Of a stretch of 64,000 nucleotides of DNA, positions 1 through 55,938 are shown one piece after another. This DNA comes from Minisyncoccota bacterium. GTDB taxonomy: Bacteria; Patescibacteriota; Minisyncoccia; Phycocordibacterales; UBA5272. The stretch is from assembly GCA_041651055.1 (NCBI GenBank), contig JBAZJW010000001.1, positions 536,506-600,505 of the forward strand. Direction: 5' to 3'. The notes below the pieces were generated by a model. It ran no database searches, was not told where the DNA came from, and saw only the letters and a program-made list of their open reading frames with translations. Position numbers and translations under genes: made by a program. Positions within the stretch are counted from its first letter, which is position 1; every line of letters begins with the position of its first letter.

Positions 1-7
1 AAAATAT

Positions 8-80
8 GTCCCTATAGCTCAGTCGGTAGAGCAGCTGCCTTTTAAGCAGACGGTCGAAGGTTCGATCCCTTCTGGGGGCA
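8..80 (+). tRNA. tRNA-Lys (anticodon UUU)
   Basis: Cloverleaf folded by eye. Acceptor stem GTCCCTA/TGGGGGC (two G-U pairs). D-arm GCTCAGTCGGTAGAGC. Anticodon loop CTTTTAA with TTT at positions 34-36. T-arm GAAGG-TTCGATC-CCTTC, discriminator A, CCA not encoded. Confidence 0.85.
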
Positions 81-137
81 CAGCAAATACAAAAAGCAGA
101 ATCAAATGATTCTGCTTTTTGTATTTGCTGTGCCCCC
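74..137 (+). terminator. 30-bp perfect palindrome (GGGGGCACAGCAAATACAAAAAGCAGAATC / GATTCTGCTTTTTGTATTTGCTGTGCCCCC) with a 4-nt loop. The inner hairpin plus T-run acts as the tRNA terminator.
   Basis: Read directly. The left arm includes the last 7 nt of the tRNA acceptor stem; the inner stem GCAGAATC/GATTCTGC is followed by TTTTT. Confidence 0.6.
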
Positions 138-242
138 AGAGAAAGTGACCTTCGTCACTTTCGTAAGGGATCGAATAGGGGTCGCAAAGTCTTATATTTT
201 TGTAATCAAAAATAGACTTTGTGACCGATCCCTTCTGACACC

Positions 243-878
243 CTACACCCCCAAAATAACCCCCTCCAACTTCCCCTTCAAATCCCCCTCACCCCTATGT
301 GCCTCGATACTCGCTCGAAGCAATTTCCCCCCGACACGCTCACATTCATCCTTACTCCACTTTGTAGCTTTTCCGTTTAAGGTATCTTCCCATATTGTTT
401 TCATTTTCCACCACAAGGCTCCGTGAATTGCTTCTGCACTATCTAAATCACGTATCCTCATCCACTCTACCCACGCCCCTTTTTTATCTTTTCTGGCAAA
501 GAGATTACACAACGTAAATACATCGACATCCCGTTCTTTTTGTTCACGAGCGTCGAATATTTTTTCAGAATATTTTTCTAACCGTTTCAGCCTGTTCGCA
601 TCGGCAAAAGGTTCATCGATAATAAAAATATTCGCAGACTCTTTCATGTCTGGAAAAAGTCGAATCACTTCATCTCTCGATGCGGCAACATCCATCACCT
701 GGATAAGATTGGCTATAATTTTTTCTCCAAACAATGTAGATGCAGAAACAAACGGTTCAAGCGTAGCAATTTGTTCGCTGTAAATATGTGCTGAAACAGT
801 ACCATGTTTAAGAAGGGCTTCATATGCCTTTTCTCTTCCTTGTATTCCGGTGCCAACGATTGCGTAAATCATAAGCAT
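243..878 (-). CDS. Hypothetical protein, unrecognised; N-terminus IYAIVGTGIQG without a canonical Walker A lysine. Its C-terminal end lies in an odd pyrimidine-rich stretch (243-430).
   Basis: ORF of 211 aa. A TATACT -10-like hexamer lies 2 nt upstream of the ATG, so the mRNA may be leaderless. No family recognised. Confidence 0.4.
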   Translation of the reverse strand: MLMIYAIVGTGIQGREKAYEALLKHGTVSAHIYSEQIATLEPFVSASTLFGEKIIANLIQVMDVAASRDEVIRLFPDMKESANIFIIDEPFADANRLKRLEKYSEKIFDAREQKERDVDVFTLCNLFARKDKKGAWVEWMRIRDLDSAEAIHGALWWKMKTIWEDTLNGKATKWSKDECERVGGKLLRASIEAHRGEGDLKGKLEGVILGV

Positions 879-966
879 AGTATACTATGCTTCAATTTTT
901 AATTTGAAATTTTTAATTTTTATTGAAAATACAGGAATAACACCTTCTCCATGAATCCTGTTTCCC

Positions 967-1045
967 GTGTCGTTCCAGGCTTGATCCACCAGCTGGCGGA
1001 GGAATCCAAGTGGACACTGGGGGCCAATTTTCATTGGGGCGACAA
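967..1045. promoter_or_regulatory. Diverged copy A of a three-palindrome / cloverleaf-like element (see 8786-8852 and 9485-9547).
   Basis: 3' half ...AATCCAAGTGGACACTGGGGGCCAATTTTCATTGGGGCGACA matches the other copies. The closing helix TGTCG/CGACA differs from TGTCA/TGACA by a compensatory pair. Confidence 0.45.
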
Positions 1046-1103
1046 AGCTAAATACGAACGTTTTGTATATCTAACCTCTAAAGTCTAATATCTAAAATCT
1101 GCC

Positions 1104-3964: not shown

Positions 3965-6862
3965 TTAGTGAGAAACGTGTCCGTCATCTTTGTACGAAGC
4001 GTAAATACTACGCGCAAGAATAAAGATAATGAAAAGGATTGCAATAAGTGCGAGCCATTCCACGAGGCTATTAGGAAGGAATCCACTTCCTGCTCCGGCT
4101 CCGATAACATGCTTTGCACCAGTGTCTGTATTATTGACACTCTCATTTGGAAGAATAGATCCGACAACATATGCGGTTACTTCATCCTGCACTTGTGTAC
4201 CAGGAACAGAGTATGCGACATATGCCGTAGTCACGATTGTCTTTCCGAGTGGAGCGTCATTATTCACATTTCCGTTCCATACGATGACACCTTCTGTAAA
4301 TGCGTCGAGTGACCCCTGCATGAAAGTGAGCGTGTGTGTCGCACTGTCGTATGTTCCGGCAAGAGATGACACGAATGTAATTTCTTGTGGAACAGTAATT
4401 CTCATGATCACATTATCAAGACGAGTGTTTGAAAGATTCTTGTAGGTCAATTTATAGGAAACATTTGAACCTGTAGAAAGATTTCCATTTGTCTTTTCCA
4501 TTTGAAGTGCGATCAACTTCTGACCCTGATTAAGGAGTGTGGCGGTTGATTGCCCTACGGTAATAACAGAACCATCTGAACAAGTAATCTGATTTTGTTT
4601 CACTGTTGTTACAGCCTTAACGGTCGTCGTCTTTTTGATAACGGTTATAGGCTTCACGTAGGTGACAGCTTTTGTCTTTGTTGTGAAGTGAACGATTTCA
4701 CCTTTCACGAGTCCGTACTGATTTTGCATCACTGCTCGGCAGTAGTATGTCGTCTGTGGCTTGAGGCTTGCGAGAACATTTGAGAATGGTGACGTAAGTG
4801 CAGATCCAATAGACGCAGTAGCTGTCTGACGACCAAGGTTCGCAGTTTCTCCGTACTCAAACCATCCTGTTGATGGTGCACCTTGCGCAATGAGTCCGAT
4901 ACCATTACAGCGAGCACTTGTGTTTGTAATTTCTGTTACAGCACTTGTAACCACGTTGTTGAACTTCACAACTTGTGGTGGTACGTATGGTGCATATGGA
5001 ACACCAACATAACATGTTTGATATACAGGAACACTCGTTCCATTCGCACACACTTTGTACTGTGAAGGGCAAATTGACGTGTGGGGAATAACACTTCCAT
5101 CCCAACATGATTGTGTTGTGATAACTGGAGGTGTATATGTCGTAGCGTACTGTGAATAATTGTATGTTGGGTACGTGTAGTTTACGTTTGTGTTTGAAAT
5201 AACATTCGTAATCGTACAAGCTCCATTACTGTAGGTTGTGTTCACAGGACATGATGTACTGTTAATAGTACAGACACCATTGATCAGCGTTGTCCCAGTA
5301 GGACATGCAGTGATGTTGATCTGACAGATATTGTTGATGAGCGTTGTGCCTGATGGACACATTGTCGTCCCCTGACCAAGACAGGTGCCATTTGTAAAGG
5401 TTGTTCCTGATGGACAAACCACAGGTGCCTGACATACGCCATTGATAAGCGTTGAATTGGTTGGGCACTGTGCTGGGTACTGACATGTTCCATTTGTAAG
5501 TGTGGTTCCTGAAGGGCAGGCTGTCTGATTGATCTGACATGTACCATTCACCATACTTGAACCTGCTGGACATGAAGTTGTGTTGATCTGACATGTGCCA
5601 TTGATTCTTGTTGTACCTGATGGACACGATGTTGAGTTAACCACACATGATCCAAGAAGAAGTGTTGTTCCCGCTGGACATACTGTTGTGTTCACCTGAC
5701 ATGTTCCATTGATGAGCGTTGTACCTGATGGACATACGGTCTGATTGATCTGACAAGTGCCATTTATCATGGTCGTGCCGGATGGACAGATAGTGGTGTT
5801 CACCTGACAAACATTGTTAATTAATGTTGTGCCAGTTGGACACTGAGTATTGGGTACACAGGTATTTCCAGAAAGAGTTTGACCTGCTGGGCACTGTGTT
5901 GTTGGCACACAAACATTATTTATGAGTGTTTGGCCGTTTGGACATTGAGTGGTTGGTACGCAAACATTTCCCGACAATGTCTGACCAGACGGACATTGGG
6001 TTATTGGCTGACAATCATTTGGATAAGTTACTGTGGTTCCATTTGAACAATGCTTTACACAAGCACCCCCGCTTACTAGCGCGTAACCTGGGTAAACACA
6101 TTGACCTGGCATTATTGTTATTTGACATGAGCCGTTTATATATGAAGAACCCGTTGGACAGGTTTGTGTGTGCACTGGACACTGAGAAGAATACATCACG
6201 GTCGTACCGTCGGCACAATAGTAATATGACGGGTTAACAGTTGTGTTCGTAGTGTACCCTGTTCCTCCTGTGTACGTAGACCCAACCCAGCTCGTGCCAG
6301 AATTATATGTTGATCCTGTATAAAGATTGTCTGTGTAAACAGGTGCAGTGGAGTAAGTTGGAGAGGTGTATGAGTACGAAGGAGAGTATAAATATGAGGG
6401 GTACGTTGGTGATGTATAAATTCCAGAAGTTGATGGACTTGTGTAGATTCCCCCTGTTGTATCACTTGTATAAACACCCGAAGATGGGTACGAAGTATAG
6501 ATACCTGAAGTAGGGTCGCTTGTATAAACACCACTTGTTGGATATGAAGTATAGAGTCCTGATGTTGGATCAGATGTATAAATGCCTGAAGATGGGTCAG
6601 AGGTATAAAGACCAGCAGAAGGGAAAGAGGTATATATGCCGGCAGTTGGGTCACTTGTATAAACACCTGAAGATGGATACGAAGTATAGATTCCAGCAGT
6701 TGGGTCAGAAGTATAAATACCTGTGGATGGGTCGCTCGTGTAGATACCTGAAGATGGGTCTGATGTGAAGATACCGTAGTCATCGGCAGACACAATTTGC
6801 GGAAGAATTATGTTTGAACACAAAACTGCAAGAACGAGTGTTGTAAATATATTTTTTTTCAT
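3965..6862 (-). CDS. Large cell-surface repeat protein: signal peptide, about 14 copies of a 9-aa repeat (SGIYTSDPT), about 20 Cys/Thr-rich 18-aa repeats (CPSGTTLINGTCQVNTTV), C-terminal TM anchor.
   Basis: The ORF track extends to 7534, but that N-terminus is frame read-through. Start taken at the MKKNIFTTLVLAVLC signal peptide (ATG at 6862). C-terminal hydrophobic LVEWLALIAILFIIFILA. Confidence 0.75.
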   Translation of the reverse strand: MKKNIFTTLVLAVLCSNIILPQIVSADDYGIFTSDPSSGIYTSDPSTGIYTSDPTAGIYTSYPSSGVYTSDPTAGIYTSFPSAGLYTSDPSSGIYTSDPTSGLYTSYPTSGVYTSDPTSGIYTSYPSSGVYTSDTTGGIYTSPSTSGIYTSPTYPSYLYSPSYSYTSPTYSTAPVYTDNLYTGSTYNSGTSWVGSTYTGGTGYTTNTTVNPSYYYCADGTTVMYSSQCPVHTQTCPTGSSYINGSCQITIMPGQCVYPGYALVSGGACVKHCSNGTTVTYPNDCQPITQCPSGQTLSGNVCVPTTQCPNGQTLINNVCVPTTQCPAGQTLSGNTCVPNTQCPTGTTLINNVCQVNTTICPSGTTMINGTCQINQTVCPSGTTLINGTCQVNTTVCPAGTTLLLGSCVVNSTSCPSGTTRINGTCQINTTSCPAGSSMVNGTCQINQTACPSGTTLTNGTCQYPAQCPTNSTLINGVCQAPVVCPSGTTFTNGTCLGQGTTMCPSGTTLINNICQINITACPTGTTLINGVCTINSTSCPVNTTYSNGACTITNVISNTNVNYTYPTYNYSQYATTYTPPVITTQSCWDGSVIPHTSICPSQYKVCANGTSVPVYQTCYVGVPYAPYVPPQVVKFNNVVTSAVTEITNTSARCNGIGLIAQGAPSTGWFEYGETANLGRQTATASIGSALTSPFSNVLASLKPQTTYYCRAVMQNQYGLVKGEIVHFTTKTKAVTYVKPITVIKKTTTVKAVTTVKQNQITCSDGSVITVGQSTATLLNQGQKLIALQMEKTNGNLSTGSNVSYKLTYKNLSNTRLDNVIMRITVPQEITFVSSLAGTYDSATHTLTFMQGSLDAFTEGVIVWNGNVNNDAPLGKTIVTTAYVAYSVPGTQVQDEVTAYVVGSILPNESVNNTDTGAKHVIGAGAGSGFLPNSLVEWLALIAILFIIFILARSIYASYKDDGHVSH

Positions 6863-7013
6863 AGTAAGTAATACTTTTTTCCCAACTGTAATAAAAGAAA
6901 AAGAGTTATTAAAGTATACTACATATAATAATAATGTCAATAGTAGTGTGGAAAAGAAAAACCCCGCGTTGCGAAATGCAAAGCGGGGTGCCCATGCGGG
7001 ACTTTGTGAAAAA

Positions 7014-7979
7014 TCAGTTTCCGGAAATCTTCCGGTATGACTTGAAGCCATAGCTTTTACGGGTCTGTTCGACGAAGTCGGAGCAGGATCCGTTGAAACT
7101 TGCAGGCTTGTCGAAGCGCTTGCCAGCGAGGGTGCCGGCAGAACTCTGGTCATCCTTCGTTGCCGGATGAATCCATGCACATTCGACATTCGAGGTAGAA
7201 CTGAAGACTTGAGCCGCAGAAGAAGAAGGGGCTTGGGTCGTCGTTGGGTCGGACGTCGTAATGGTCGCCGTTGCCACAGCCTGGGGCTGTGAACGGGCGA
7301 GCATCGCGAGTGCGATTGCCACCGCACTGTTGCCGTTGTCGGCCGGCGAGACTTTTGCAACTGCCTTGTGGGCCGTTGCATGAGCCTTCTTGGCTGTCGC
7401 CTTTGCATCGTCTGCCGTTTGCACGGCGGACGATGCTGATGCAAGTGCTGCTGTCGCTTTCTCGTCAGCTGCACTTGCCAAAGCTTTCGCCTTCTCGGCC
7501 TTGTCCTTGGCGGCGGCGGCAGTATTGCCCGCAACCTTCGCCTCAGTCATCGCCAAATTAGCCGTCTGCGCAACCGGGACGAGTTCGCTCCGGTCAGGCT
7601 TGAACCAGGCCAAGGCAACGAGCAGTCCAATCAGCAGTGCAGCCATGATGGCCGCAGCGACGATCCATCCGGTCCGGTTTTGACTCGGGGCCGGCATGTA
7701 AACCACTTGAGGCTGTTGTGCGGGCGGCGGGCTGGCGGGGTATTGCGCTGGACGCAAACCCCCTCCACCCGCTGCAGCCAAGGAACGGGCAGCGTTTGCC
7801 TCCTCAGCCTCGCGCTTGTGTGCGGCAGCCAACGCGTCAGCGTTAGCTACTTCAGCAGCGGCCTCAGCTGCGATTTGTTTTTTCCTGGCAGCCTCTGCCA
7901 GGTCTTCTGCAAAAGCAGCGTCTCGGAGGGTGTTCCCTCCAGAGCTTTGCTGTACTACCGGGGGACGAACGGTTGCCAT
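7014..7979 (-). CDS. Ala/Lys-rich single-pass membrane protein with a C-terminal 2-Cys domain shared with the 8189-8635 protein.
   Basis: AGGAGG ribosome-binding site 6 nt upstream of the ATG. One TM (WIVAAAIMAALLIGLLVALAWF). C-terminus ECAWIHPATKDD...RFDKPASFNGSCSDFVEQ parallels VCAWINPDTKERFDKPASHKGSCPSFVKE. GC-rich. Confidence 0.65.
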   Translation of the reverse strand: MATVRPPVVQQSSGGNTLRDAAFAEDLAEAARKKQIAAEAAAEVANADALAAAHKREAEEANAARSLAAAGGGGLRPAQYPASPPPAQQPQVVYMPAPSQNRTGWIVAAAIMAALLIGLLVALAWFKPDRSELVPVAQTANLAMTEAKVAGNTAAAAKDKAEKAKALASAADEKATAALASASSAVQTADDAKATAKKAHATAHKAVAKVSPADNGNSAVAIALAMLARSQPQAVATATITTSDPTTTQAPSSSAAQVFSSTSNVECAWIHPATKDDQSSAGTLAGKRFDKPASFNGSCSDFVEQTRKSYGFKSYRKISGN

Positions 7980-8063
7980 GATGGCCTCCTGTGGGTTAAT
8001 GGGTTAATTGACAAAAAACACCGTGTCTCGTTAAGGTTATTAACCCTTTCAAAACATATGCAT

Positions 8064-8091
8064 AGTATACATGAAAATATAGATTTGTCAA
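8064..8091 (-). promoter_or_regulatory. Sigma70-like promoter TTGACA-N16-TATACT for the 7014-7979 gene (duplicate of the module at 8715-8742).
   Basis: Read on the minus strand: cTTGACAaatctatattttcatgTATACT; about 39 nt is identical to the second copy. Confidence 0.55.
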
Positions 8092-8124
8092 GGGCTTTAC
8101 TTTTACTCTTAACTTATCAGGTTT

Positions 8125-8160
8125 GTATAAAAACAACCCCTTTCCGCGAAAAGCGTAAGG
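8125..8160 (-). terminator. Rho-independent terminator of the 8189-8635 gene.
   Basis: Minus strand AACCCCTTacgcttttcgcggAAAGGGGTT followed by GTTTTTAT. Confidence 0.6.
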
Positions 8161-8188
8161 GGTTGGGTGGCCAATATGGCCTGACACG

Positions 8189-8635
8189 CTATTGGCGCGT
8201 CGCGATGGAGAATCCAAAGCGACCCGCCACCTCTTTCACAAAAGAGGGGCAGCTGCCTTTGTGGCTGGCAGGCTTGTCGAAACGCTCCTTCGTGTCTGGA
8301 TTGATCCATGCACATACGTTCGCAATTGGGCGACCGGTTGTGGAGTCGACCTTCACGTCGTCAGCCTTTACTGCGGCGCGGGGCGCTTCCTGAGCGCGCC
8401 TGTAGATATCGGCTTTGATGGCCGATTCCTTGGCTCGACAAGCAGCGTCGCTACTTGCGTGTTCGGGGTAGTTCACCCCGCCGATAATGCATTGGGGAGC
8501 CCTGGAAACAGTGCCCCCTTGTTGCATCTGGCCACTCATCTGTTGATTTTGCTGGGGAGGCACCGAGGTGCAACCGGTCAGCAGGACAGCAACAGCAACC
8601 AGGGTAACGGAGACGAGGCGGGAGAAGTTGGACAT
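8189..8635 (-). CDS. Small lipoprotein with the shared C-terminal 2-Cys domain.
   Basis: Start moved to MSNFSRLVSVTLVAVAVLLTGC (lipobox LLTGC), with AAGGAGG 6 nt upstream. C-terminal CAWINPDTKERFDKPAS..GSC motif. GC-rich. Confidence 0.7.
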   Translation of the reverse strand: MSNFSRLVSVTLVAVAVLLTGCTSVPPQQNQQMSGQMQQGGTVSRAPQCIIGGVNYPEHASSDAACRAKESAIKADIYRRAQEAPRAAVKADDVKVDSTTGRPIANVCAWINPDTKERFDKPASHKGSCPSFVKEVAGRFGFSIATRQ

Positions 8636-8714
8636 AATGTCCTCCTTAAAAATGAAAAAGTGCGGAAGAAACTCCTGATACATCAAGGTTAGTCGATGAA
8701 TGAGGATCGAATAC

Positions 8715-8742
8715 AGTATACATGAAAACAGAGATTTGTCAA
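8715..8742 (-). promoter_or_regulatory. Sigma70-like promoter TTGACA-N16-TATACT for the 8189-8635 gene.
   Basis: Minus strand cTTGACAaatctctgttttcatgTATACTgtattcg. Confidence 0.55.
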
Positions 8743-8785
8743 GGCCTTAGTAGGGACACGGACCTCCAGCCGTCATCCATTTTCT

Positions 8786-8852
8786 TGTGTCATTCCAAAT
8801 TTAATTTGGAATCCAGTGAACACTGGACCCCAATTTTCATTGGGGTGACACC
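8786..8852. promoter_or_regulatory. Copy B of the three-palindrome / cloverleaf-like element, about 40 bp upstream of the -35 of promoter 8715-8742.
   Basis: TGTGTCA-ATTCCAAATTTAATTTGGAAT-CCAGTGAACACTGG-ACCCCAATTTTCATTGGGG-TGACACC: three different palindromes or hairpins enclosed by a closing helix. Confidence 0.5.
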
Positions 8853-8887
8853 TTAAAGGTGTCGATTATTTAGAGCTAGTATAATAA

Positions 8888-8925
8888 AAAGCTGCCGGCG
8901 GATGCTGGCAGCGGGGTTGGCACTT
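8888..8925 (-). terminator. Rho-independent terminator of the 8935-9357 gene.
   Basis: Minus strand GCTGCCagcatccgccGGCAGC followed by TTTTTATTA. Confidence 0.55.
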
Positions 8926-8934
8926 TCGTGCAGA

Positions 8935-9357
8935 TCAGAATGAGTTCTCGGCCTTCATTGCGGAGAAAAGCTCCGGGGGTTCCGCGGGCGGCGGCAAGTA
9001 CAGAACGAACTCGAAAGTTCCGTCTGAATTTAGCTTGCCCCAAGTGCGCCCTTGGCAGACCCAGCCGACACCTTTAATCAACTGATATCCAGCTGAGCAT
9101 CCGCCGCCCGGCTGATACAGTGGCGGAGTTTGCGGATACAGAACCGGTGGGATGTATTGCTGTTGGTATTGTTGGTTCGGCTGAATGTAAATCGGCCTCA
9201 CCTGCTGAGGCTGTGTTTGCTGTGCACCCCCTCCTCCTCCATTGAAACAAACATGCCCTCCGTCACCACGAGGGATGCACCCCGACAAGTTGAGAGCACA
9301 TCCGTGCAAGGCAAGGGCTGCAAGCAGTGCTGCTGCCCAGAAAACAAAACGTCTCAT
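8935..9357 (-). CDS. Small Gln/Pro-rich lipoprotein.
   Basis: MRRFVFWAAALLAALALHGC lipobox; AAGGAG ribosome-binding site; GC-rich. Confidence 0.65.
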   Translation of the reverse strand: MRRFVFWAAALLAALALHGCALNLSGCIPRGDGGHVCFNGGGGGAQQTQPQQVRPIYIQPNQQYQQQYIPPVLYPQTPPLYQPGGGCSAGYQLIKGVGWVCQGRTWGKLNSDGTFEFVLYLPPPAEPPELFSAMKAENSF

Positions 9358-9484
9358 GAGATTCTCCTTGAATAAGGTTAATGAAAAGGTGGAATAAATT
9401 CCACCGGACTTACGAATATAAATCTACAGTATTTTTCACTTTTGTCAAGAGTTGTAATTCTACACGTCAAATTCTTTTTGTATC

Positions 9485-9547
9485 TGTCATTCCAAATTTA
9501 ATTTGGAATCCAGTGGACACTGGACCCCAATTTTCATTGGGGTGACA
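9485..9547. promoter_or_regulatory. Copy C of the three-palindrome / cloverleaf-like element, upstream of the 8935-9357 gene.
   Basis: TGTCA-TTCCAAATTTAATTTGGAAT-CCAGTGGACACTGG-ACCCCAATTTTCATTGGGG-TGACA; about 97% identical to copy B. Confidence 0.5.
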
Positions 9548-9644
9548 AATACGAAGATTACTTTACAAACTTTATGAACTTTTTAAACTTTCGACTCCTC
9601 TGTATCCACTCATCACTAATGCCGAATGCCTATATACTGTCTCT

Positions 9645-25037: not shown

Positions 25038-26012
25038 CTATTGTTTACGAGTATCAAACACAAGATCAATATCAACCTGTGCTTTTTGTAATCTCCTTAC
25101 ACTGTTGTCGACACTGATAGAAAGAGGTCGAGATCCGTAGCTATCTTTCTTTGGTGAAAGTGAAAGAAGTGTCCCTCCTATTGGGGTGATAGGCATACCG
25201 TCTAGTGACCAGTCATATGAAACAGTAGATCCGAGAGATCCTCGAGATGAAAGGAAGAAAGGAACAAGACTTAATGTAAAATCTTTTGTTGTTTCAAATC
25301 GTCGAGTGATAAGGTTTGTAAAATCTGTCCCCAAAACAGCATCATACGTATAAAGAAGAGGCATTACTTTGTGTGGATATATCTCTATGGTGTTTTCTGC
25401 TTTTGTACCATAGGGTGCCGTTGCTATAACTTTTACGGTTGTTGAATCTCTTACATACTCAAGAGGAATGGGTACGGATTGTTTTCCTGCTCCGGAAAGA
25501 GATTCGAGCAGTTCGTCGTTTGCATACCATGTATATGAAATAAGATCTGCCGGAACTTTCTTTCCATTCTCACTCATTGCGGGAATAGCGGAAACACGCG
25601 CTGTTGACCCTTCGCTTCCAAGAGACCTCCCCTCATAAAAAGGAGGAACATATCCTTCGGAGGATTCGTAGAGAAGAGAGACAGATTCAGGAACAAGGCT
25701 TACAGAGGCTTCGAGCGTTGTGCCATTTGCGGTGACTGCTTTCGCACGAAGAGGTAACACTTCACCAGAAGCACCTGTTCGCACGGTTATTTCTTTTTTA
25801 CCAAAACCTGAAAGAATTTGTTTTGTTCCAGAATACCAGGTGATCATCGCAGTAGAAACGTTAAATGAATAACTTGAAAGGGTGAGTGTTACAGAAGAAT
25901 ACGGTGCTGGGCTCGTAGGATTTATATCGATGGTGCCATCTACACTTGACGCAGACGCCACAAAAGGCGTTGTTAAAAAAAGAACAGTTAAAAAGATGTG
26001 GGTTATTTTCAT
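25038..26012 (-). CDS. Secreted protein of unknown function.
   Basis: 324 aa with signal peptide MKITHIFLTVLFLTTPFVASA. Confidence 0.5.
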   Translation of the reverse strand: MKITHIFLTVLFLTTPFVASASSVDGTIDINPTSPAPYSSVTLTLSSYSFNVSTAMITWYSGTKQILSGFGKKEITVRTGASGEVLPLRAKAVTANGTTLEASVSLVPESVSLLYESSEGYVPPFYEGRSLGSEGSTARVSAIPAMSENGKKVPADLISYTWYANDELLESLSGAGKQSVPIPLEYVRDSTTVKVIATAPYGTKAENTIEIYPHKVMPLLYTYDAVLGTDFTNLITRRFETTKDFTLSLVPFFLSSRGSLGSTVSYDWSLDGMPITPIGGTLLSLSPKKDSYGSRPLSISVDNSVRRLQKAQVDIDLVFDTRKQ

Positions 26013-27826
26013 AGACCTCTTGATTGTGCTACTTCATCTTTCATGGCTTTTATTTGAAGAAGTTGAGACGGATCACTTGTGATAATTTGATCTTCTGTAT
26101 ACGATGCTACAATTTTGATTGCTACATGTTTGAGTCCTGCAAAGAATATTCCCTCCCCTACACCAGATTCGAGAAGTAGGAACTTTTCTTCATCAGTTAA
26201 ATTGAAGGTCTTTTGTACAAGGTCGATAGATGAAGGAGATTGTTTGAGGAGAAGTTGAATGGAAGAGTTTGTGATAATAGGAAGACCATAGGGTGACTTC
26301 AAAAAGTCTCCAACATCTTGGGTTATTGTCGCAAGTCCTAGGTAATATTTTCGTCCACGCTTTGCAAGACCGAAAAGGAAAGATGCAGTGTCATCATTTT
26401 TCATCATAATCCACGCTTCATCCACCACGAGAAGTCGTTTTTTGATGACTTTACGAACGGAATTCCAAATATAATGCGTGATAATGTACATTGCTACCGG
26501 CTTCAGTTCTTCCTCCATGTCTCGAATAGAAAAACATACAAGTTTTTTATTGATGTCTACGTTTGAGGGTTGGTTGATAAAGCCAGACCATGTCCCTTTC
26601 GTGTATTTTGAAAGACGCTGAATTAAGTCTGTTGAACCATCGATTCCACCGAGAACTGTTTCGAAGTCTGAAAGAAGAGGTGGCTCAAGTTTTGTGAAAT
26701 CAACATCACCACTAATATCCTTGAGGGCATAGGTCTCTGTAATTGCCTGGTCAATGATTGCGTCTTCGGCTGGTGTGAGACCTCCTAGCATCACACGGAA
26801 CAATCCCACGAGGTTAACGATGTTTGAACGAAGAACTTCAGACGGAGACTCGTCTTCTGTTGGATGAGGAAGATCAAAAGGATTGATATGGTGCTCACTT
26901 GTAAGTGAAATGTCGAAATATCTACCTCCAACAGACTCTGCGAGATATTCGTATTCACGTTCTGGGTCGATAATAATAACTTCCGTGTCGAACATCAATG
27001 TGCGGAGAATTTCCAATTTTGTAAGATAACTTTTTCCAGATCCAGACTTGGCGAATACGATGGAGTTATAGTTTTCAAGAGAAAAACGATCAAACAAAAT
27101 AAGCGAACCGTTGTGACGGTTAAGTCCGTAGAGTATCCCCCTATCAGAAGAAAGGTCAAAAGATACGAAAGGAAAGAATGATGAAAGAGGAGATGTGTTT
27201 AATTTATTTTTGATGCCGAGCAAGTCTTGTCCAAGAGGAAGCGTTGAAAGAAAACCTGTGTCTTGCTGAAAGAGCGCTGGCTTCACATAAATAAGACGAC
27301 TTTCGAGAATATTTTTGATTTCACTTTCTACCTTGTCCACCTCATCTTCACTGCCACCGTAAATAGAAATATACAAAGAGACTTCAAACATTTTTTCCTG
27401 AGCCTGTGTTAATCCGTCACGCAAATCTTCGAGGTCCTTGTAGGCAACATCAAGCGAAGGGTCTCGTACAAGTCCCTTTTCTTCACGTGTCATGATTTGA
27501 CTCTCTACTTCAGCTACCTTGCGTTGAAATTTTTTCATTACATCACCGGTATCAAGCGGTGTCACGTGAATGGCAACGTCGAATACTTTGTCTAAGTTGA
27601 TGATGGGACTCAACCAATTCTCAGAAAGATATCTCGGATATGAAATGACAAAGTAAGAACGTACGATACTTGTGCCTAAGTTGAGTGATTTCGGTTGTAC
27701 ACCAAGAGCACTTGGTGCGATGATGTCTTTCAATTGCATTTCGGCAACTTTGTACACCTGCTCTGGAAGAAGTGGGGATACCGGAGAGTCTTGTTTTTTT
27801 GAATTGAGAAAATCGAAAAGTCCCAT
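26009..27826 (-). CDS. virB4: Type IV secretion ATPase, VirB4/TrbE/CagE family.
   Basis: 605 aa; Walker A FAKSGSGKSY, Walker B LLVVDEAW; length and motif spacing of Gram-positive-type VirB4 (TcpF/PrgJ-like). Confidence 0.85.
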   Translation of the reverse strand: MGLFDFLNSKKQDSPVSPLLPEQVYKVAEMQLKDIIAPSALGVQPKSLNLGTSIVRSYFVISYPRYLSENWLSPIINLDKVFDVAIHVTPLDTGDVMKKFQRKVAEVESQIMTREEKGLVRDPSLDVAYKDLEDLRDGLTQAQEKMFEVSLYISIYGGSEDEVDKVESEIKNILESRLIYVKPALFQQDTGFLSTLPLGQDLLGIKNKLNTSPLSSFFPFVSFDLSSDRGILYGLNRHNGSLILFDRFSLENYNSIVFAKSGSGKSYLTKLEILRTLMFDTEVIIIDPEREYEYLAESVGGRYFDISLTSEHHINPFDLPHPTEDESPSEVLRSNIVNLVGLFRVMLGGLTPAEDAIIDQAITETYALKDISGDVDFTKLEPPLLSDFETVLGGIDGSTDLIQRLSKYTKGTWSGFINQPSNVDINKKLVCFSIRDMEEELKPVAMYIITHYIWNSVRKVIKKRLLVVDEAWIMMKNDDTASFLFGLAKRGRKYYLGLATITQDVGDFLKSPYGLPIITNSSIQLLLKQSPSSIDLVQKTFNLTDEEKFLLLESGVGEGIFFAGLKHVAIKIVASYTEDQIITSDPSQLLQIKAMKDEVAQSRGL

Positions 27827-27830
27827 AGAA

Positions 27831-28469
27831 TTATTCTTGTGTTATTTTAGGTGCCGAACGATCTTGCTCGCTTGGGTTGAAGAGTTTATAGAAAAGCTCT
27901 ACAACCTCTTCTGTGCCAAGCTTTTGTGCACGAATACCGAAACGGGAAAGCCCTTGCACTACGGTCGCAATGCGTTGCTCGAGTTGTATACGAGCTGCGG
28001 TGAAGGATGCTTGATTTTCGGCGGAAGTATTATTTCCAAGGCCAAACGAAAGCAGTGACGATGTACCTGAAGGCTTTGCGTTTTCTTGGAAATATGGAAT
28101 GACAATAAAGAAATGCTTGGTCATAATGTTTGTCTCGTCTGCAAATTTTTTAATGAACCCCATGTACTCATGGATTTGTATTTTCAAAAGGTCTTCTTTG
28201 ATTTCGGAACTGCGAGATTGAAGTAGTTCCATGTAGGGTTTGATGTTGAGTCTGCGAGATTGAATGAAAAATTCCACAGGGAAATCAAGTGAATTGAGGA
28301 GGGTTTGGAATTGTAGCAAAATAGCCTGTTGTTCGTCCTCGCTCTTAAGAGCGAGGTTGAGTGAATTGGTGATGAGCACTGCACGAAGTTCCCCTGTTTT
28401 GAGTACGACGACACCATCACGAACTCTTTCGATTGGTACAAATTGTTGTGTTGCTGTTCCGACTGCCAT
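27831..28469 (-). CDS. T4SS-cluster hypothetical protein (no TM).
   Basis: 212 aa; 5 nt downstream of virB4. Confidence 0.45.
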   Translation of the reverse strand: MAVGTATQQFVPIERVRDGVVVLKTGELRAVLITNSLNLALKSEDEQQAILLQFQTLLNSLDFPVEFFIQSRRLNIKPYMELLQSRSSEIKEDLLKIQIHEYMGFIKKFADETNIMTKHFFIVIPYFQENAKPSGTSSLLSFGLGNNTSAENQASFTAARIQLEQRIATVVQGLSRFGIRAQKLGTEEVVELFYKLFNPSEQDRSAPKITQE

Positions 28470-28594
28470 GTGAACCTAGTATATCAGACAAGAGAGAAGA
28501 GACGTGTGAGAAAGTACACAAAAGAGAAGAGGCTACTCTTCTCAATATTCAATGAATTTAATAATCAATATTCAAAAGTGATCCAAATACTAGA

Positions 28595-28615
28595 ATTACA
28601 ATGACCGTCATTGCA
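28595..28615. promoter_or_regulatory. Operator-like palindrome ATTACAATGACCGTCATTGCA (also a perfect 49-bp inverted pair at 33133-33181).
   Basis: CAATGACCGTCATTG is self-complementary. Located in the 180-bp gap between operon segments and preceded by AATATTCAA motifs at 28541-28578. Confidence 0.45.
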
Positions 28616-28649
28616 AAAAAACACAATCAACCACCACATAGCTCTCCCC

Positions 28650-29078
28650 CTACTCTTTTTCTTCTTGATTGTGATCAAACACATCTAATCCAAGAGCTAC
28701 ATCGTGTAATCTGTCTTTGTTTGCTTTTGAAAAAATAACTTCTTTAGTTGTGTCTGCTACCACCTTATCGATATGATCATCCCCCACCGCAGGTGTCTCA
28801 GGCTGCTTCCATGTGTAAATCTTTGCACCAGTGTAATATGCGAAAGCACTTTCTAGTATTTCTCCAAAAGAGCGATTATTTATTTTAACAAAAGCGAGCG
28901 CAAGGAAAAGTCCCGCCACAGGAACGATAAGAATAATGGCAATAATTTTAATGGAAACGAATGTCCAAATAAGAAATGAGAAACCTCCAGCTCCGAGCAG
29001 ATACCCGAACTGTTTTAACGTAAGAGGGCCGACGACTTTGTCTTCTGTATCGATGAATTGTGGTACGCGGAATTGCAT
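28650..29078 (-). CDS. VirB3/PrgI-like small membrane protein.
   Basis: 142 aa, two adjacent TMs, N-terminal FIDTEDKVVGPLTLKQFGYL; position next to virB4. Confidence 0.45.
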   Translation of the reverse strand: MQFRVPQFIDTEDKVVGPLTLKQFGYLLGAGGFSFLIWTFVSIKIIAIILIVPVAGLFLALAFVKINNRSFGEILESAFAYYTGAKIYTWKQPETPAVGDDHIDKVVADTTKEVIFSKANKDRLHDVALGLDVFDHNQEEKE

Positions 29079-49521: not shown

Positions 49522-49639
49522 AATAGATAGTTGATAGTCATTAGTTGATAGTTTTTAGTTGAATACAAAAATTCAAAACATCTAATGACCATATTGTTTA
49601 TTAAAATAGAAACTATAGTTTAGTATACACCCTGGGCTC

Positions 49640-49764
49640 AGTTAGGAGACGGCAGTTAGGGGTTAGGAGTGAATACAATTCTAAATTCATAAGCGCGCCC
49701 GAAGGGCGCGCTTATGAATTCCCTAACTTCCTAACGAATAACGTCCTAACTACTTAAGTCCTAG
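49640..49764. repeat. GTTAGG/CCTAAC module with a central 15-bp-stem hairpin (AATTCATAAGCGCGCCC-gaa-GGGCGCGCTTATGAATT).
   Basis: CAGTTAGGAGACGGCAGTTAGGGGTTAGGAG ... hairpin ... CCCTAACTTCCTAACGAATAACGTCCTAAC; downstream of rpsO. Confidence 0.7.
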
Positions 49765-50013
49765 CTTTGTTACGATTGAAGTATATCTCTTCTTGTTATT
49801 CGCTTCGAGGTACTTAAGATGAGTACGGCGATCAGCAACCATTTGGATAAGACCACGACGTGAGTGATTATCTTTCTTGTGTTCTTTCAAATGATTTGTA
49901 AGCTCTGTAATTTTCTTACTTAAAATAGACACCTGAACTTCAGGAGATCCTGTGTCAGTGTCATGAATTTGAGCGGTTTTGATGGCAGTAGCCTTTTTTC
50001 GTGCAGAAAGCAT
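49750..50013 (-). CDS. rpsO: 30S ribosomal protein S15.
   Basis: 87 aa; ...HLKEHKKDNHSRRGLIQMVADRRTHLKYL. Confidence 0.9.
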   Translation of the reverse strand: MLSARKKATAIKTAQIHDTDTGSPEVQVSILSKKITELTNHLKEHKKDNHSRRGLIQMVADRRTHLKYLEANNKKRYTSIVTKLGLK

Positions 50014-50229
50014 AAATGTAGCGTATTGATTAACTATTTGTGTATTGTATCACACATTTCCCTAAATTGCAACCCCTTTTGGGCAGATTTTAGACATTAG
50101 GTGTTAGATTTTAGAAAACCCCTCTTTTCCATAGATAATCTAGTATTATTTACATAAAAGAAGGCGGAATGGGTGGTTTTTTTTGGTTTACTGTTGCTGA
50201 CAGCTATGGATATTGGCCCTGGAGAAATA

Positions 50230-50262
50230 AAAAAACTCAGCCAATTGCTGAGTTTTGCTGTT
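50230..50262. terminator. Bidirectional terminator AAAAAAACTCAGCcaattGCTGAGTTTT.
   Basis: Hairpin flanked by an A-run and a T-run; lies downstream of the minus-strand gene 50368-51528. Confidence 0.55.
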
Positions 50263-50367
50263 TAGTACAGATAGATATAAATCTTGTTACAGCAATGACT
50301 ACGAGTCGTCACAACTAGGTAAAACCAGAAGTGTTCGCAGGAAGTCATTGCTGTGATGAAAATCGCT

Positions 50368-51528
50368 TTAATGCCGAAGTTTCATTCGAAAAGGTTTCAC
50401 TGTGTACGTGGTACACCTGAATGCATTAACATTGCAATGCGTTGTTGCATATGCAAACTTTAGGGTGCAGATAGTGGTCCTGGCGCCCTTTTTCAAATTA
50501 CCCTGGTCCGACCGTACTCCGACCAGTCGATGGTCTCCGTTTCGGTCTAACTTTCCAGCTCTCCCGATCATTGTTTTGACGTCCTTTATTTTGACGTCGT
50601 TTGTCTGACCCTCGATGCCACAAATGGCAACAAATCCGGGCCGCTTCCATTCCACGGCAAGGTGGATGGGTTTGTTGGATGAATCCGAACAGGTGACTGT
50701 GAATTGGTATGTTTTGTTCTCAGCCGAAAGCCCGGCGAGCATCGTTTCGAAATCTGGAGGGAAAGAAATATCTTGGAATCCGACAAATTTCTTTATTTGA
50801 GACAGTCCAATGGTTGCCTCGTTGGCAATGGTGCCAGCGACCCTTGCTTCGGCCGTTATCTTGACCGCCGTATCCTTTGCAATATTTCTTGCTAACGTTG
50901 ATACGTTGATTGCTGTTTCGGACCTTGTTTGGTTGTCCGTGGTGATTTCCGTTGTCCGGATCAGGTCTTTTCTCATGCGCCAGACCAAGAAGGAAAGGCA
51001 AAGCATTAACCCGAAAAAAACAACACCAACAGACCAGAGTGCAGTGGATTGGGTTGCAATCAACACCCGCAGACCTGCTTCGGAAATTTTCTGCTGCTCT
51101 TGTGCAGCTTCGAGGGCTTGTATCTTCCCGCCAAGCGCAAGGGCTTGCTGTTGCCCTTCAGTGATTTCCTTTTTCAGGCCTACACTGGTTTTGGTCAGTG
51201 CCGTGTTTGCTTCCGCAAGCTTTTTGTTGACCCTGTTAAGTGACGAGACGGTGTGCTCGAGTTGTTTGGCTGCTTTCTGTGCCTTAAGCGCACTCTCTTG
51301 CATCTTCACCATTTCCTCCTGCGCCTTCACAAGACTCTCCTGCATCTTCAGTGCATCCTTTTGCGCCTTCGCCACATCCTCCTGCATCTTCACAAGATCT
51401 GCGTATGTCAGAACGACGGTGGTTGTTGTGGCTTTTGCTGTTGTTTGCGACCACGACATCTGCGATGAGGCGATCAAAAGAATTGCCAGCAACACTTTCA
51501 CGAGTACAAGTATCGTTTTCATGACCAA
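50368..51528 (-). CDS. Secreted/membrane coiled-coil protein with (V/L)KMQE..LKAQ 11-mer repeats and one internal TM.
   Basis: Signal peptide MVMKTILVLVKVLLAILLIASS; 33-nt DNA repeats at about 51290-51400; TM LWSVGVVFFGLMLCLSFLVW. Confidence 0.5.
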   Translation of the reverse strand: MVMKTILVLVKVLLAILLIASSQMSWSQTTAKATTTTVVLTYADLVKMQEDVAKAQKDALKMQESLVKAQEEMVKMQESALKAQKAAKQLEHTVSSLNRVNKKLAEANTALTKTSVGLKKEITEGQQQALALGGKIQALEAAQEQQKISEAGLRVLIATQSTALWSVGVVFFGLMLCLSFLVWRMRKDLIRTTEITTDNQTRSETAINVSTLARNIAKDTAVKITAEARVAGTIANEATIGLSQIKKFVGFQDISFPPDFETMLAGLSAENKTYQFTVTCSDSSNKPIHLAVEWKRPGFVAICGIEGQTNDVKIKDVKTMIGRAGKLDRNGDHRLVGVRSDQGNLKKGARTTICTLKFAYATTHCNVNAFRCTTYTVKPFRMKLRH

Positions 51529-51745: not shown

Positions 51746-52693
51746 ATGCAATCCCTCGATACTCTCAAACAAGATTTCCTCCAATACATCGAAATCGAAA
51801 AAGGACGCTCAGCACTTACGGTGCGTAATTATGAGCACTATCTCAAGCGGTTTTTGGATTTTGTAAAAGTAGAATCCCCTGCGGATATCACTGAGAGCAT
51901 GATGCGTGAGTATCGTGTGTACCTCAATCGTCATCCAGCTCGTGAAGTAAAAAAGGGTCAGGCGGTGGAGACATTAGATAAGAAGACGCAGAATTATCAC
52001 CTCATCGCGCTTCGTGCATTCTTGAAATATATGCGTAAGCGTGGCGTGCAGAGCTATGATCCAGAGAGAATAGAGCTTGCAAAGACTCAGCAGAGAGAGC
52101 TTGACCTTATTTCAGAAAAAGAATTGCATAACCTCATGTCGGCACCGGACATTACTACTATAGGAGGGCTTCGTGATAAAGCGATCTTAGAATTATTTTT
52201 CTCAACAGGGTTGCGTGTTTCGGAATTATGTTCACTTGATCGTGATACTGAATTAAATATGGGAGAAATATCTGTACGCGGAAAAGGTGGCAAGATACGC
52301 GTGGTATTCATTTCTGGATCTGCTCGCGAAGCGGTCAAAAAATATTTAGATAATAGAGTTGATATCGACGAAGCGATGTTCATAGACCACTCCCCTCGCG
52401 CACATGCGAGAATGGTAAAAGAAGAATCAGTGCGCCTTACTCCTCGCTCTGTGGAACGTGTCGTGGAAAAGTACGCAGCCATTGCAGGCATAGCAAAGAA
52501 ATGCACACCGCACGTGATACGACACTCCTTCGCGACAGATCTTTTATATAATGGTGCGGACTTGCGTACTGTGCAGATGATGCTCGGACATGCGTCTATC
52601 GCGACGACACAAATATATACGAACGTGACCAACAAATTCCTTCGTGATCAGTTCGAAAAGTTTCATTCGAAGAGAGATGGAGGCAAAGAATAA
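51746..52693 (+). CDS. xerC: Tyrosine site-specific recombinase XerC/XerD family.
   Basis: 315 aa; R...HxxR...Y catalytic region (VIRHSFATDLL, LGHASIATTQIYTNV). Confidence 0.85.
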   Translation: MQSLDTLKQDFLQYIEIEKGRSALTVRNYEHYLKRFLDFVKVESPADITESMMREYRVYLNRHPAREVKKGQAVETLDKKTQNYHLIALRAFLKYMRKRGVQSYDPERIELAKTQQRELDLISEKELHNLMSAPDITTIGGLRDKAILELFFSTGLRVSELCSLDRDTELNMGEISVRGKGGKIRVVFISGSAREAVKKYLDNRVDIDEAMFIDHSPRAHARMVKEESVRLTPRSVERVVEKYAAIAGIAKKCTPHVIRHSFATDLLYNGADLRTVQMMLGHASIATTQIYTNVTNKFLRDQFEKFHSKRDGGKE

Positions 52694-54992: not shown

Positions 54993-55358
54993 TTACATTG
55001 TATAGTCTACCAGTATTGCTTGGTAATCCGCCTCATTTATCCCCGCCTCAAAAGTTTCTACTTGAGTATCGGTGGCATAAAAAGGACTGTTGTTGTACGA
55101 GTCTAGTGCCTGTGGTGTTGTGATGAACGAAGGAAGTATGGCGATAGCTATGACACACACGGATACAAGCTGTGTGACCGCTACCCATATATAAGGGGAT
55201 CGTATCGCACGTCTGTCATGTGCAGTTGGTTCTTTCTCTGGTATTTGATTAAGAATATTTACAAGCATATCTCTAGACGGCGACACGGTCTCCGTATACA
55301 TGAAAAGCGCTTTTGCTATTCCTTCTTCTGATTCTGTTGTTGATTTAATGTCCTTCAT
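54993..55358 (-). CDS. Putative anti-sigma factor (single TM).
   Basis: 121 aa overlapping the sigma-factor gene end; TM IWVAVTQLVSVCVIAIAILP. Confidence 0.45.
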   Translation of the reverse strand: MKDIKSTTESEEGIAKALFMYTETVSPSRDMLVNILNQIPEKEPTAHDRRAIRSPYIWVAVTQLVSVCVIAIAILPSFITTPQALDSYNNSPFYATDTQVETFEAGINEADYQAILVDYTM

Positions 55359-55938
55359 GGAGATGGTGTGTGAGCGCTCGAAGCTTTTTGAGTGCGCGCT
55401 CTTTTATTTTGCGAACGGCCACTTCTTCTTTTTCTATAATATCCGATATCTCCTTGTAACTACGCTCTCCATAAAAATAGAGGCGTATCACCTCTTGTTC
55501 ATCCTGTGTGAGTGCTGGCAAGAACGTGTCTATCGTTTCGGCGAGCAGTCGCACATGTGCGTCGTCAAGCGTGTCGACGGAGTCATCTTTTGTCGTTTCG
55601 AAGAGTGTTTCGTCAAAAGAGATAGAGGACTTCTTTTCCGCGTGATTGATGAGCAGCCTCTTTCCTATTGTAAAAAGATAGGCAAGAGGAGACTTCTCAG
55701 GTTCATACGAAGGAAGGGCTTTATAGAAATTAAGAAAGGACTGTTGGCAAATATCTTGGGCAAGCTCTTTATCGTGACATTTTGAAAAAATGTAACGAAA
55801 GAGTGGGGCATACAAAAGCTCGTACACCACTTCAAAAGACTTCGCGTCCCCGTTTTTAGCGGAATATATAAGCTTTCTCAGTGATTCTGTATCCCCCACA
55901 CCATATATAACCGGCGTTTCTTTATTTTGTGACAGCAT
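55345..55938 (-). CDS. ECF-type RNA polymerase sigma-70 factor.
   Basis: 197 aa; region 2 (FEVVYELLYAPLFRYIF) and region 4 (GERSYKEISDIIEKEEVAVRKIKERALKKLR) recognisable. Confidence 0.8.
   Translation of the reverse strand: MLSQNKETPVIYGVGDTESLRKLIYSAKNGDAKSFEVVYELLYAPLFRYIFSKCHDKELAQDICQQSFLNFYKALPSYEPEKSPLAYLFTIGKRLLINHAEKKSSISFDETLFETTKDDSVDTLDDAHVRLLAETIDTFLPALTQDEQEVIRLYFYGERSYKEISDIIEKEEVAVRKIKERALKKLRALTHHLHEGH

Follow-up and report, generated by a model that had tools for sequence, protein, structure and literature searches.

The stretch analysed here is a 64-kb window (by which we mean all 64,000 nt examined) of contig JBAZJW010000001.1 from a Minisyncoccota bacterium. Next to pilB it carries three consecutive minus-strand genes, P1 (7014-7979), P2 (8189-8635) and P3 (8935-9357), which stand apart from their surroundings in base composition, codon usage and translation start signals. 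An initial annotation had described them as a GC-rich island with Shine-Dalgarno (SD) sites, encoding secreted proteins, two of them with a common C-terminal 2-Cys motif, and had proposed either horizontal acquisition or a distinct expression regime. As read from the DNA, each of the three genes is predicted to be its own transcription unit, composed of a near-consensus promoter, a leader, an SD site and an intrinsic terminator, and the second proposal therefore fits: these are separate leadered units in what appears to be a largely SD-less genome. The features are as follows, beginning with the genes, which were recognised as open reading frames (ORFs) together with the evidence given in each line.

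7014..7979, minus strand: P1, a 'type B' protein of 321 aa (ORF, SD site, same product on two assemblies, orthologues)
7017..7184, minus strand: C-terminal 2-Cys domain of P1, type B, with an 11-residue insert and the end ...YRKISGN (BLASTP against P2, family alignment)
8189..8635, minus strand: P2, a 'type A' protein of 148 aa (ORF, SD site, seven aligned homologues at 36-44% identity)
8192..8317, minus strand: C-terminal 2-Cys domain of P2, type A (BLASTP and family alignments)
8935..9357, minus strand: P3, a secreted Gln/Pro/Gly-rich protein of 140 aa with two Cys pairs (ORF, AAGGAG site)
7990-7985, minus strand: SD site of P1, AGGAGG, 5-nt spacer to the ATG
8648-8641, minus strand: SD site of P2, TAAGGAGG, 5-nt spacer to the ATG
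9369-9364, minus strand: SD site of P3, AAGGAG, 6-nt spacer to the ATG
8064..8092, minus strand: P1 promoter, TTGACA, spacer, TATACT, 11/12 consensus matches
8715..8743, minus strand: P2 promoter, TTGACA, spacer, TATACT, 11/12 consensus matches
9421..9448, minus strand: P3 promoter, TTGACA, spacer, TAGATT, 10/12 consensus matches
6950..6988, minus strand: P1 terminator, a GC-rich hairpin followed by a T-run
8129..8164, minus strand: P2 terminator, AACCCCTT...AAGGGGTT followed by a T-run, read from the sequence
8886..8912, minus strand: P3 terminator, GCTGCC...GGCAGC followed by TTTTT, read from the sequence

The leaders of the three units measure 55-90 nt. The promoters of P1 and P2 are 91% identical over 34 nt, the region around the TTGACA of P3 (9441-9463) resembles the matching region of the P1 promoter (repeat D4), and the layout CTTGACAAA...TGTATACT of the P1 promoter recurs in relatives. 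The strength of these signals, taken by itself, points to high or separately controlled expression of P1-P3. The P3 leader also holds a terminator-like hairpin at 9388-9405 on the minus strand (GGTGGAATTTATTCCACC, then TTTT) just 5' of the SD site, which may be an attenuator. A conserved leader RNA structure in type A genes was considered and rejected (RNAalifold, -0.07 kcal/mol with four weak pairs).

We used the 47 other genes of the window as the background for composition and start signals. An SD core of at least 5 nt at usable spacing precedes all three island genes and only one of the 47 others, the gene at 50368-51522 (Fisher exact test, ~2e-4), and a GGAGG-type SD 4-9 nt before the start is found in P1-P3 and in all of the orthologues. 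The strong sites described in the initial annotation are thus present before all three genes, with spacings of 5, 5 and 6 nt in place of a uniform 6 nt, and its remark that nearly all other genes of the window are SD-less is borne out. In about 11 of the 47 a TATACT-like hexamer ends 6-9 nt before the ATG, most often at 6-7 nt, a geometry which suggests leaderless mRNAs, possibly widespread in the lineage. Starts of the SD-less or TATACT-box kind include those at 9645, 14917, 18423, 24146, 28469, 29078, 48168 and 53486, and the same pattern is seen in the related contigs L083, L003 and L004 (described below). A search of the Patescibacteria literature for SD or leaderless usage returned nothing on point.

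The 1-kb window 7001-8000 has a G+C content (GC) of 0.592 and is the only one above 0.51 in the 64 kb; window 8001-9000 reaches 0.502 and all remaining ones lie at 0.345-0.475. Gene by gene, GC is 0.598 for P1, 0.584 for P2 and 0.556 for P3 versus 0.429±0.027 in the background (n=47; z = 4.7-6.2), and GC at third codon positions (GC3) is 0.593, 0.651 and 0.553, respectively, versus 0.371±0.056 (n=47). Codons ending in C are preferred (GAC 0.87 versus 0.40 in the background, TTC 0.79 versus 0.44), as are codons ending in G (AAG 0.69 versus 0.32, GAG 0.59 versus 0.25, CTG 0.32 versus 0.06). The three genes are therefore GC-richer than their surroundings, as first described, and deviate in GC3 and codon usage as well. 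That description had extended to the DNA as a contiguous GC-rich stretch, which does not hold. Only the three reading frames show the GC excess, which ends at their start and stop codons, while the spacers 7980-8188 (GC 0.40), 8636-8934 (0.43) and 9358-9644 (0.34) are host-like and resemble the other intergenic DNA of the window (0.23-0.50). The overlapping plus-strand ORFs were rightly dismissed as artefacts: ORF 7680-8393 sits in the codon-aligned antisense frame of P1, and long antisense ORFs arise here because a stop in that frame requires TTA, CTA or TCA as the sense codon, and P1-P3 use these three only rarely.

The amino-acid composition of the proteins accounts for part of the excess. 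Ala makes up 18.8% of the island proteins versus 8.2% of the background, Pro and Gln are raised too, and GC at the first and second codon positions lies above background with z = 1.4-2.9, so that the suggestion of Ala codons as a partial driver was correct as far as it went. It is very improbable, however, that Ala/Gly/Pro-rich low-complexity proteins simply force GC-rich codons and that nothing else is unusual. When each gene's amino-acid mix is encoded with background codon choice, a GC3 of 0.35-0.36 is expected for P1-P3 and 0.55-0.65 is observed, which refutes this explanation as a sufficient one; background genes deviate from the same expectation by 0.005±0.057, at most by 0.167. Furthermore, the GC3 excess recurs in relatives, and the SD sites are beyond the reach of composition.

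P1 has no signal peptide and runs from a cytoplasmic Ala-rich N-terminal region through a transmembrane helix (residues 104-126), an extracellular Ala/Lys-rich stalk and a Ser/Thr/Pro linker to the C-terminal 2-Cys domain. P2 combines a signal peptide and the lipobox LLTG-C, a middle Cys-pair module (CIIGGVNYPE...C) and a C-terminal 2-Cys domain ending in ...IATRQ; its N-terminus, MSNFSRLVSVTLVAVAVLLTG-C, fits the lipobox pattern [LVI][ASTVI][GAS]C. P3 has a signal peptide followed by the atypical lipobox ALHG-C with His at position -2. Hence, of the protein classes assigned initially, the single-pass membrane protein (P1) and one lipoprotein (P2) stand, and the lipoprotein status of P3 is uncertain. 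The 321-aa product of P1 is encoded identically on L001, a metagenome contig from ENA, and on L002, a Logan contig. The DNA of both is 100% identical to the window over the shared stretch, which makes three assemblies of the population that are identical at the locus. The public gene calls for P1 and P2 nevertheless differ on this identical DNA: the NCBI call for P1 begins within the transmembrane helix and gives 210 aa, where the SD position and homologues favour the start at 7979 and 321 aa, and the ENA and Logan calls for P2 begin at an upstream TTG and give 164 aa, where the same two lines of evidence favour the start at 8635 and 148 aa.

The C-terminal domains of P1 and P2 are 21/46 identical (BLASTP, E=2e-11). 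With a profile of the two domains, HMMER was run exhaustively on 1.84 billion cluster representatives and recovered 11 further members, always with the domain at the C-terminus and all on short Logan or ENA contigs that resemble the Candidate Phyla Radiation (CPR). The shared motif noticed in the initial annotation is thus a real one. Members occur in two forms. Type A proteins have a signal peptide and, in most cases, a Gly-rich zipper-like stretch; they carry between one and three Cys-pair modules, and their domain ends in ...ATRQ. Type B proteins are anchored by a membrane segment or a lipid and have a coiled-coil stalk, and their domain contains an 11-13-residue insert and ends in ...RKI(x). 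Modelled with AlphaFold2 from eight sequences, P2 forms two beta-hairpin-plus-helix modules (residues 48-83 and 109-139, predicted local distance difference test score (pLDDT) 85-90), each containing a conserved Cys pair; from the single sequence the model is poor (pLDDT 56).

Word-indexed searches of 5.8 billion proteins returned only the self matches of P1, P2 and P3. Pfam (scanned with 35 window products), NCBIfam and PDB sequence searches gave no significant match for the island proteins, and a Foldseek search of the eight-sequence P2 model against PDB and BFVD gave nothing with E below 1, all of which agrees with the first impression that the motif lies outside known families. No family member was found in JGI metagenome contigs or IMG/VR, and the DNA of the locus matched no plasmid or phage. 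The P1/P2 family is therefore undescribed, very rare and clade-restricted, and is built from Cys-pair hairpin-helix modules.

Judged by their Cys pairs and low-complexity stalks, together with the signal peptide and lipobox of the one and the membrane anchor of the other, P1 and P2 are probably extracytoplasmic envelope proteins; they may lie at the surface, and their Cys pairs may form disulfide bonds. Sorting signals of the LPXTG, PEP-CTERM or GlyGly-CTERM type are absent from the family C-termini, where the domain is hydrophilic and has no hydrophobic helix. It is tempting to suggest that the shared domain may be a common docking or binding module, for one another or for a shared envelope or host ligand, because secreted and anchored partners carry the same domain in two genomes that use different domains. 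The adjacency to pilB is no evidence of a role in pili, because the whole dnaA-to-polA neighbourhood is syntenic in the clade and the genes are divergent and form separate units.

We compared the pilB locus with that of related genomes, namely the family carriers L083/84, L085 and L086/87 and two metagenome-assembled genomes without the family, L003 ('Candidatus Nomurabacteria') and L004 (unclassified). The similarity of its PilB-type ATPase to those of L003 and L004 helps to place the organism among the small-genome CPR bacteria of the Paceibacteria/Parcubacteria group. In all three carriers, pilB is followed by a divergent type A gene and then a type B gene, as in the window, with the P1 orthologues P0010 (L085), P0016 (L083) and P0004 (L087) in the same position; L083 also has dnaA, dnaN, the gene for a penicillin-binding protein, tyrS, ruvC and ruvB in common with the window. 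PilB is 68-81% identical among the genomes, and the A and B proteins are 25-51% identical (local alignments). The GC3 of the A and B genes is 0.51-0.52 in L083 versus 0.14-0.30 in the neighbouring genes, and 0.71-0.74 in L085 versus 0.53 for pilB. The A and B orthologues have AAGGAG or AGGAGG, and pilB and other genes there have a TATACT box directly 5' of the ATG.

At the same spot, L003 and L004 have two GC-rich genes, leadered and monocistronic, whose Cys-containing products are secreted or anchored. Their GC3 is 0.69-0.76 in L003 versus 0.27-0.39 in the neighbours, and 0.52-0.59 in L004 versus 0.19-0.37; three of these genes have a clear SD-like motif. The plan of promoter, leader, SD and terminator recurs in L003, L004, L083, L085, L086 and L087. 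The L003 and L004 proteins had looked by eye like members of the C-terminal family, a resemblance which is unsupported (no match to the family hidden Markov model, best scores below 2 bits). Instead, the A and B proteins of L003 have a C-terminal domain of their own in common (E=1e-10). L003 carries a further GC-rich ORF (2-397, minus strand, GC 0.585) with AAGGAG, which continues up to the edge of the DNA examined and whose product does not look exported; therefore, GC-rich SD-led genes extend beyond the pilB locus.

These comparisons bear directly on whether the three genes are imports from a donor that is richer in GC and uses SD sites, with a composition that has still to drift to that of the host. 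P1-P3 are strong outliers in composition and codon usage, their translation signals look foreign for the genome, P3 is unique to it and bracketed by 63-nt direct repeats, and the unrelated genes at the locus in L003 and L004 speak for turnover, all of which such an import would explain. We nevertheless consider it quite unlikely. Three genomes with a PilB 21-26% different from that of the window have orthologous A/B pairs at this site, and the GC3 excess of these pairs persists, although a passive foreign signature should have faded by then, assuming saturated synonymous sites (PilB differences are 19-32% among the genomes). The offset amounts to about +0.2 to +0.35 GC3 over every background, so that none of the carriers, even the GC-richest, L085, looks like a compositional home. 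The excess stops at start and stop codons, and spacers and promoters are of host type. No homologues were found beyond short CPR-like contigs in either protein search, and plasmid, phage and viral-contig searches gave no match. At the borders the picture is mixed: the locus has no integrase or tRNA gene, the nearest tyrosine recombinase being 42 kb away, and 63-nt direct repeats are present but flank P3 only and not the three-gene set.

Recent horizontal transfer is thus not supported for P1 and P2 and is largely refuted by the syntenic orthologues, which keep the GC3 excess, the SD and the promoter. Whether the island is absent from close relatives, a check proposed in the initial annotation, has a divided answer: P1 and P2 orthologues are present beside pilB in three genomes, and P3 alone is absent from their loci. 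The compositional signature mimics a genomic island without P1 and P2 being one, and the initial observation was correct and more general than the window alone could show.

GC-biased gene conversion, which has been proposed to act in bacteria (PMC4450053), could raise GC3 if the locus were a recombination hotspot among strains or paralogues. The proteins evolve fast and the locus turns over, the A and B proteins of one genome have matching C-terminal domains in the window and also in L003, where the domain is another one, and codons ending in G and in C are both favoured, as a general composition force would have it. Conversion tracts take no account of reading frames and should have enriched the 209-299-nt intergenic spacers as well, which is not the case. 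Moreover, type A domains group with one another across genomes more closely than with the type B domain of their own genome, and this grouping implies no ongoing A/B homogenisation in the family. The effects usually ascribed to biased conversion are smaller than the offset of +0.2 to +0.35 GC3 seen here. We regard this explanation as unlikely, and as the main rival.

The reading that we favour, with moderate confidence, is that P1 and P2 are native, vertically inherited envelope proteins expressed from SD-dependent units, whose GC3 shift is maintained by selection, and that P3 is a lineage-specific extra unit. P1 and P2 would be fast-evolving cell-envelope proteins of a narrow clade of Paceibacteria (CPR), P2 a secreted lipoprotein and P1 a protein anchored in the membrane with a cytoplasmic N-terminus, both ending in a domain of ~45-55 aa predicted to fold as a beta-hairpin plus helix. 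Each gene would be expressed as a stand-alone unit from a near-consensus promoter of the sigma-70 type, through its 55-90-nt leader and strong SD, up to an intrinsic terminator. Translation of P1-P3 would start by SD-dependent initiation, in a genome that may be mostly SD-less or leaderless, and their coding sequences, and these only, show a general shift to G- and C-ending codons. Selection tied to how the P1 and P2 mRNAs are made, kept or translated may maintain these codons; we think of selection because the orthologues show the same shift over background GC3 values of 0.14-0.53. Selection favouring GC in bacterial genes has reportedly been proposed before. P3, built to the same design, would be specific to the lineage and would have come into the locus between two copies of the 63-nt repeat.

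Several observations weigh against this reading. Trigger factor, phosphoglycerate kinase, triosephosphate isomerase, pyrophosphatase and NusA are usually well-expressed genes, and in the window their GC3 is 0.34-0.44 and they have no SD; high expression alone thus does not bring the signature here. No ribosomal protein or elongation factor was found among the 35 window products scanned against Pfam. The 965-aa surface protein next door (3965-6862) has an equally good promoter and leader, yet a GC3 of 0.37 and no SD, and it follows from these cases that the signature cannot be predicted from high expression alone or from export alone. The preference for G-ending Lys and Glu codons is contrary to a simple tRNA-adaptation prediction; the sole Lys tRNA in the window has a UUU anticodon. 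The 64-kb window contains no rRNA gene, and hence the anti-SD of the 16S rRNA lies outside it. Finally, the PilB-type ATPase of the window is 79-81% identical to those of L003 and L004, which makes these genomes as close as the family carriers, yet they have unrelated proteins at the locus, and gene turnover therefore happens there.

A broader possibility, which we put forward tentatively and consider unlikely, is that the lineage has two translation regimes: one of housekeeping genes that are SD-less or leaderless and use AT-rich codons, and one of a small envelope or host-contact class with a leader, a strong SD and GC-rich codons, its GC excess limited to the coding frame and retained over long evolutionary times. 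The unrelated locus genes of L003 and L004 and the extra ORF of L003 share the signature, as does, more weakly, the gene at 50368-51522. If this were true, the whole class could be raised or lowered together via the state of the ribosome or of an initiation factor, with GC-rich codons as part of the control. It is exceedingly improbable that signals and codons are adapted to expression within a host cell that is richer in GC and uses SD sites.

Among known systems, P1-P3 can be compared with the genes for E. coli lpp (Braun's lipoprotein), ompA and S-layer proteins, which are stand-alone, strongly expressed envelope-protein genes. The likeness lies in a monocistronic layout, in which a strong promoter and a leader with a strong ribosome-binding site precede the gene and an efficient terminator follows it, in a small lipoprotein or anchored product, and in the Ala/Lys-rich coiled-coil stalk of P1. 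In contrast, P1-P3 have no sequence or fold similarity to these proteins, and lpp and ompA lack two of their features, the SD contrast with an SD-poor genome and a GC3 excess confined to coding sequence.

A second comparison is with glycine-zipper lipoproteins (PF13441 Gly-zipper_YMGG, PF05433 Rick_17kDa_Anti, PF13488 Gly-zipper_Omp and NCBIfam YiaD_Gzip_OmpA), to which type A homologues gave recurrent weak matches. A Gly-rich stretch of the GxxxG type follows the signal peptide in P0006, P0007, P0009, P0011, P0012, P0014 and L004_A. However, the homologues score 13-19 bits versus curated cut-offs of 24-29, P1-P3 themselves have no match, the segment is missing from P2, and the Cys-pair modules and C-terminal domain have no counterpart in zipper families. 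The locus also resembles genomic islands defined by composition, in that atypical GC and codon usage mark a cluster of surface-protein genes without assigned function. It differs from them in the conserved position of the P1/P2 locus, in atypia limited to reading frames, and in having no mobility genes, donor or outside homologue.

Atypical GC and codon usage are routinely taken as horizontal transfer. In P1 and P2 such a signature has been passed on at one and the same locus in hosts whose GC3 ranges from 0.14 to 0.53, which calls for caution in composition-based island calling in CPR genomes and provides a clean natural case for asking what selects GC at synonymous sites. The locus also reveals a CPR lineage whose genes would be mostly SD-less or leaderless, with a small SD-led minority. 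The members of the family are candidate components of the Paceibacteria cell surface, about which little is known, and the arrangement of a secreted and an anchored member with the same C-terminal domain occurs both in the P1/P2 family and, with a different domain, in L003.

P3 has a different standing from P1 and P2. It shows no similarity to P1, P2 or their homologues and is missing from the interval between pilB and the type A gene in L083, L085 and L086. We considered whether it could be the N-terminal half of an ancestral type A protein, since separated from the rest, and rejected this: BLASTP gave nothing, and a profile of type A N-termini scored P3 at -5.0 bits, with 499/500 shuffles at least equal. 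The P3 unit is bracketed by two direct copies of a 63-nt repeat at 697-nt spacing, of which a diverged third copy lies elsewhere in the window.

8788..8850, no strand assigned: 63-nt repeat copy A (repeat D1), between the P3 terminator and the P2 promoter
9485..9547, no strand assigned: 63-nt repeat copy B, 62/63 identical to copy A, upstream of the P3 promoter
966..1046, minus strand: diverged third copy, covariance-model match of 38.3 bits (E=2e-7), between polA and the gene at 243-878

The element consists of TGTCA, three abutting hairpins and TGACA, and can fold as a perfect four-way junction on either strand, with a fold energy of -31.7 kcal/mol (z=-5.0) on one strand and -29.7 (z about -5) on the other. 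The third copy retains the sequence better than the pairing. The element matched no Rfam family at gathering score, and a core pattern of 22 specified bases had no exact match in viral or JGI metagenome contigs. The repeats may mark the insertion or recombination that brought P3, and its acquisition by horizontal transfer is possible, as it has no relatives, is absent from the loci of related genomes and is flanked by direct repeats.

A ~700-bp single-gene unit with strongly folding direct repeats on both sides is reminiscent of an integron cassette with its attC sites. An attC is a single imperfect hairpin with the R''/R' core GTTRRRY/RYYYAAC, and cassettes are promoterless, with IntI and attI nearby. 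The 63-nt element, in contrast, is a three-hairpin four-way junction without that core, P3 has its own promoter, and there is neither an adjacent integron integrase nor a cassette array; the sole tyrosine recombinase found in the window is XerC-like (51746-52693). That the four-way-junction repeats are recombination sites of a new kind of single-gene cassette is decidedly doubtful.

Some further features of the window deserve mention. The gene at 50368-51522 (minus strand) is a second SD-led case (TAGGAG). It encodes a coiled-coil protein with a signal peptide and a transmembrane helix, and its GC3 of 0.54 is the background maximum; it is divergent from the XerC-like recombinase gene, and downstream of it lies an 846-nt ORF-free stretch (49522-50367). 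The neighbouring 965-aa surface protein (3965-6862, minus strand) has a signal peptide, ~20 repeats of the 'GIYTSDP' type, many CPxGxTLxNGxC repeats (a weak match to the Pfam EB module), a DUF11-like region and a C-terminal membrane anchor; gene callers give 965 or 1028 aa on identical DNA. At the start of the window, a palindrome of ~70 nt (71-140) overlaps the 3' end of the tRNA-Lys(UUU) gene (8-81), and a partial repeat of that 3' end (GATCCCTTCTG) at about 224-242, ~160 nt downstream, may be an integration-site scar. A gene of the PrgI family (28650-29078) belongs to an apparent Patescibacteria type IV secretion cluster (26009-29078), and a gene for a sigma factor of the extracytoplasmic function (ECF) type lies at 55345-55938.

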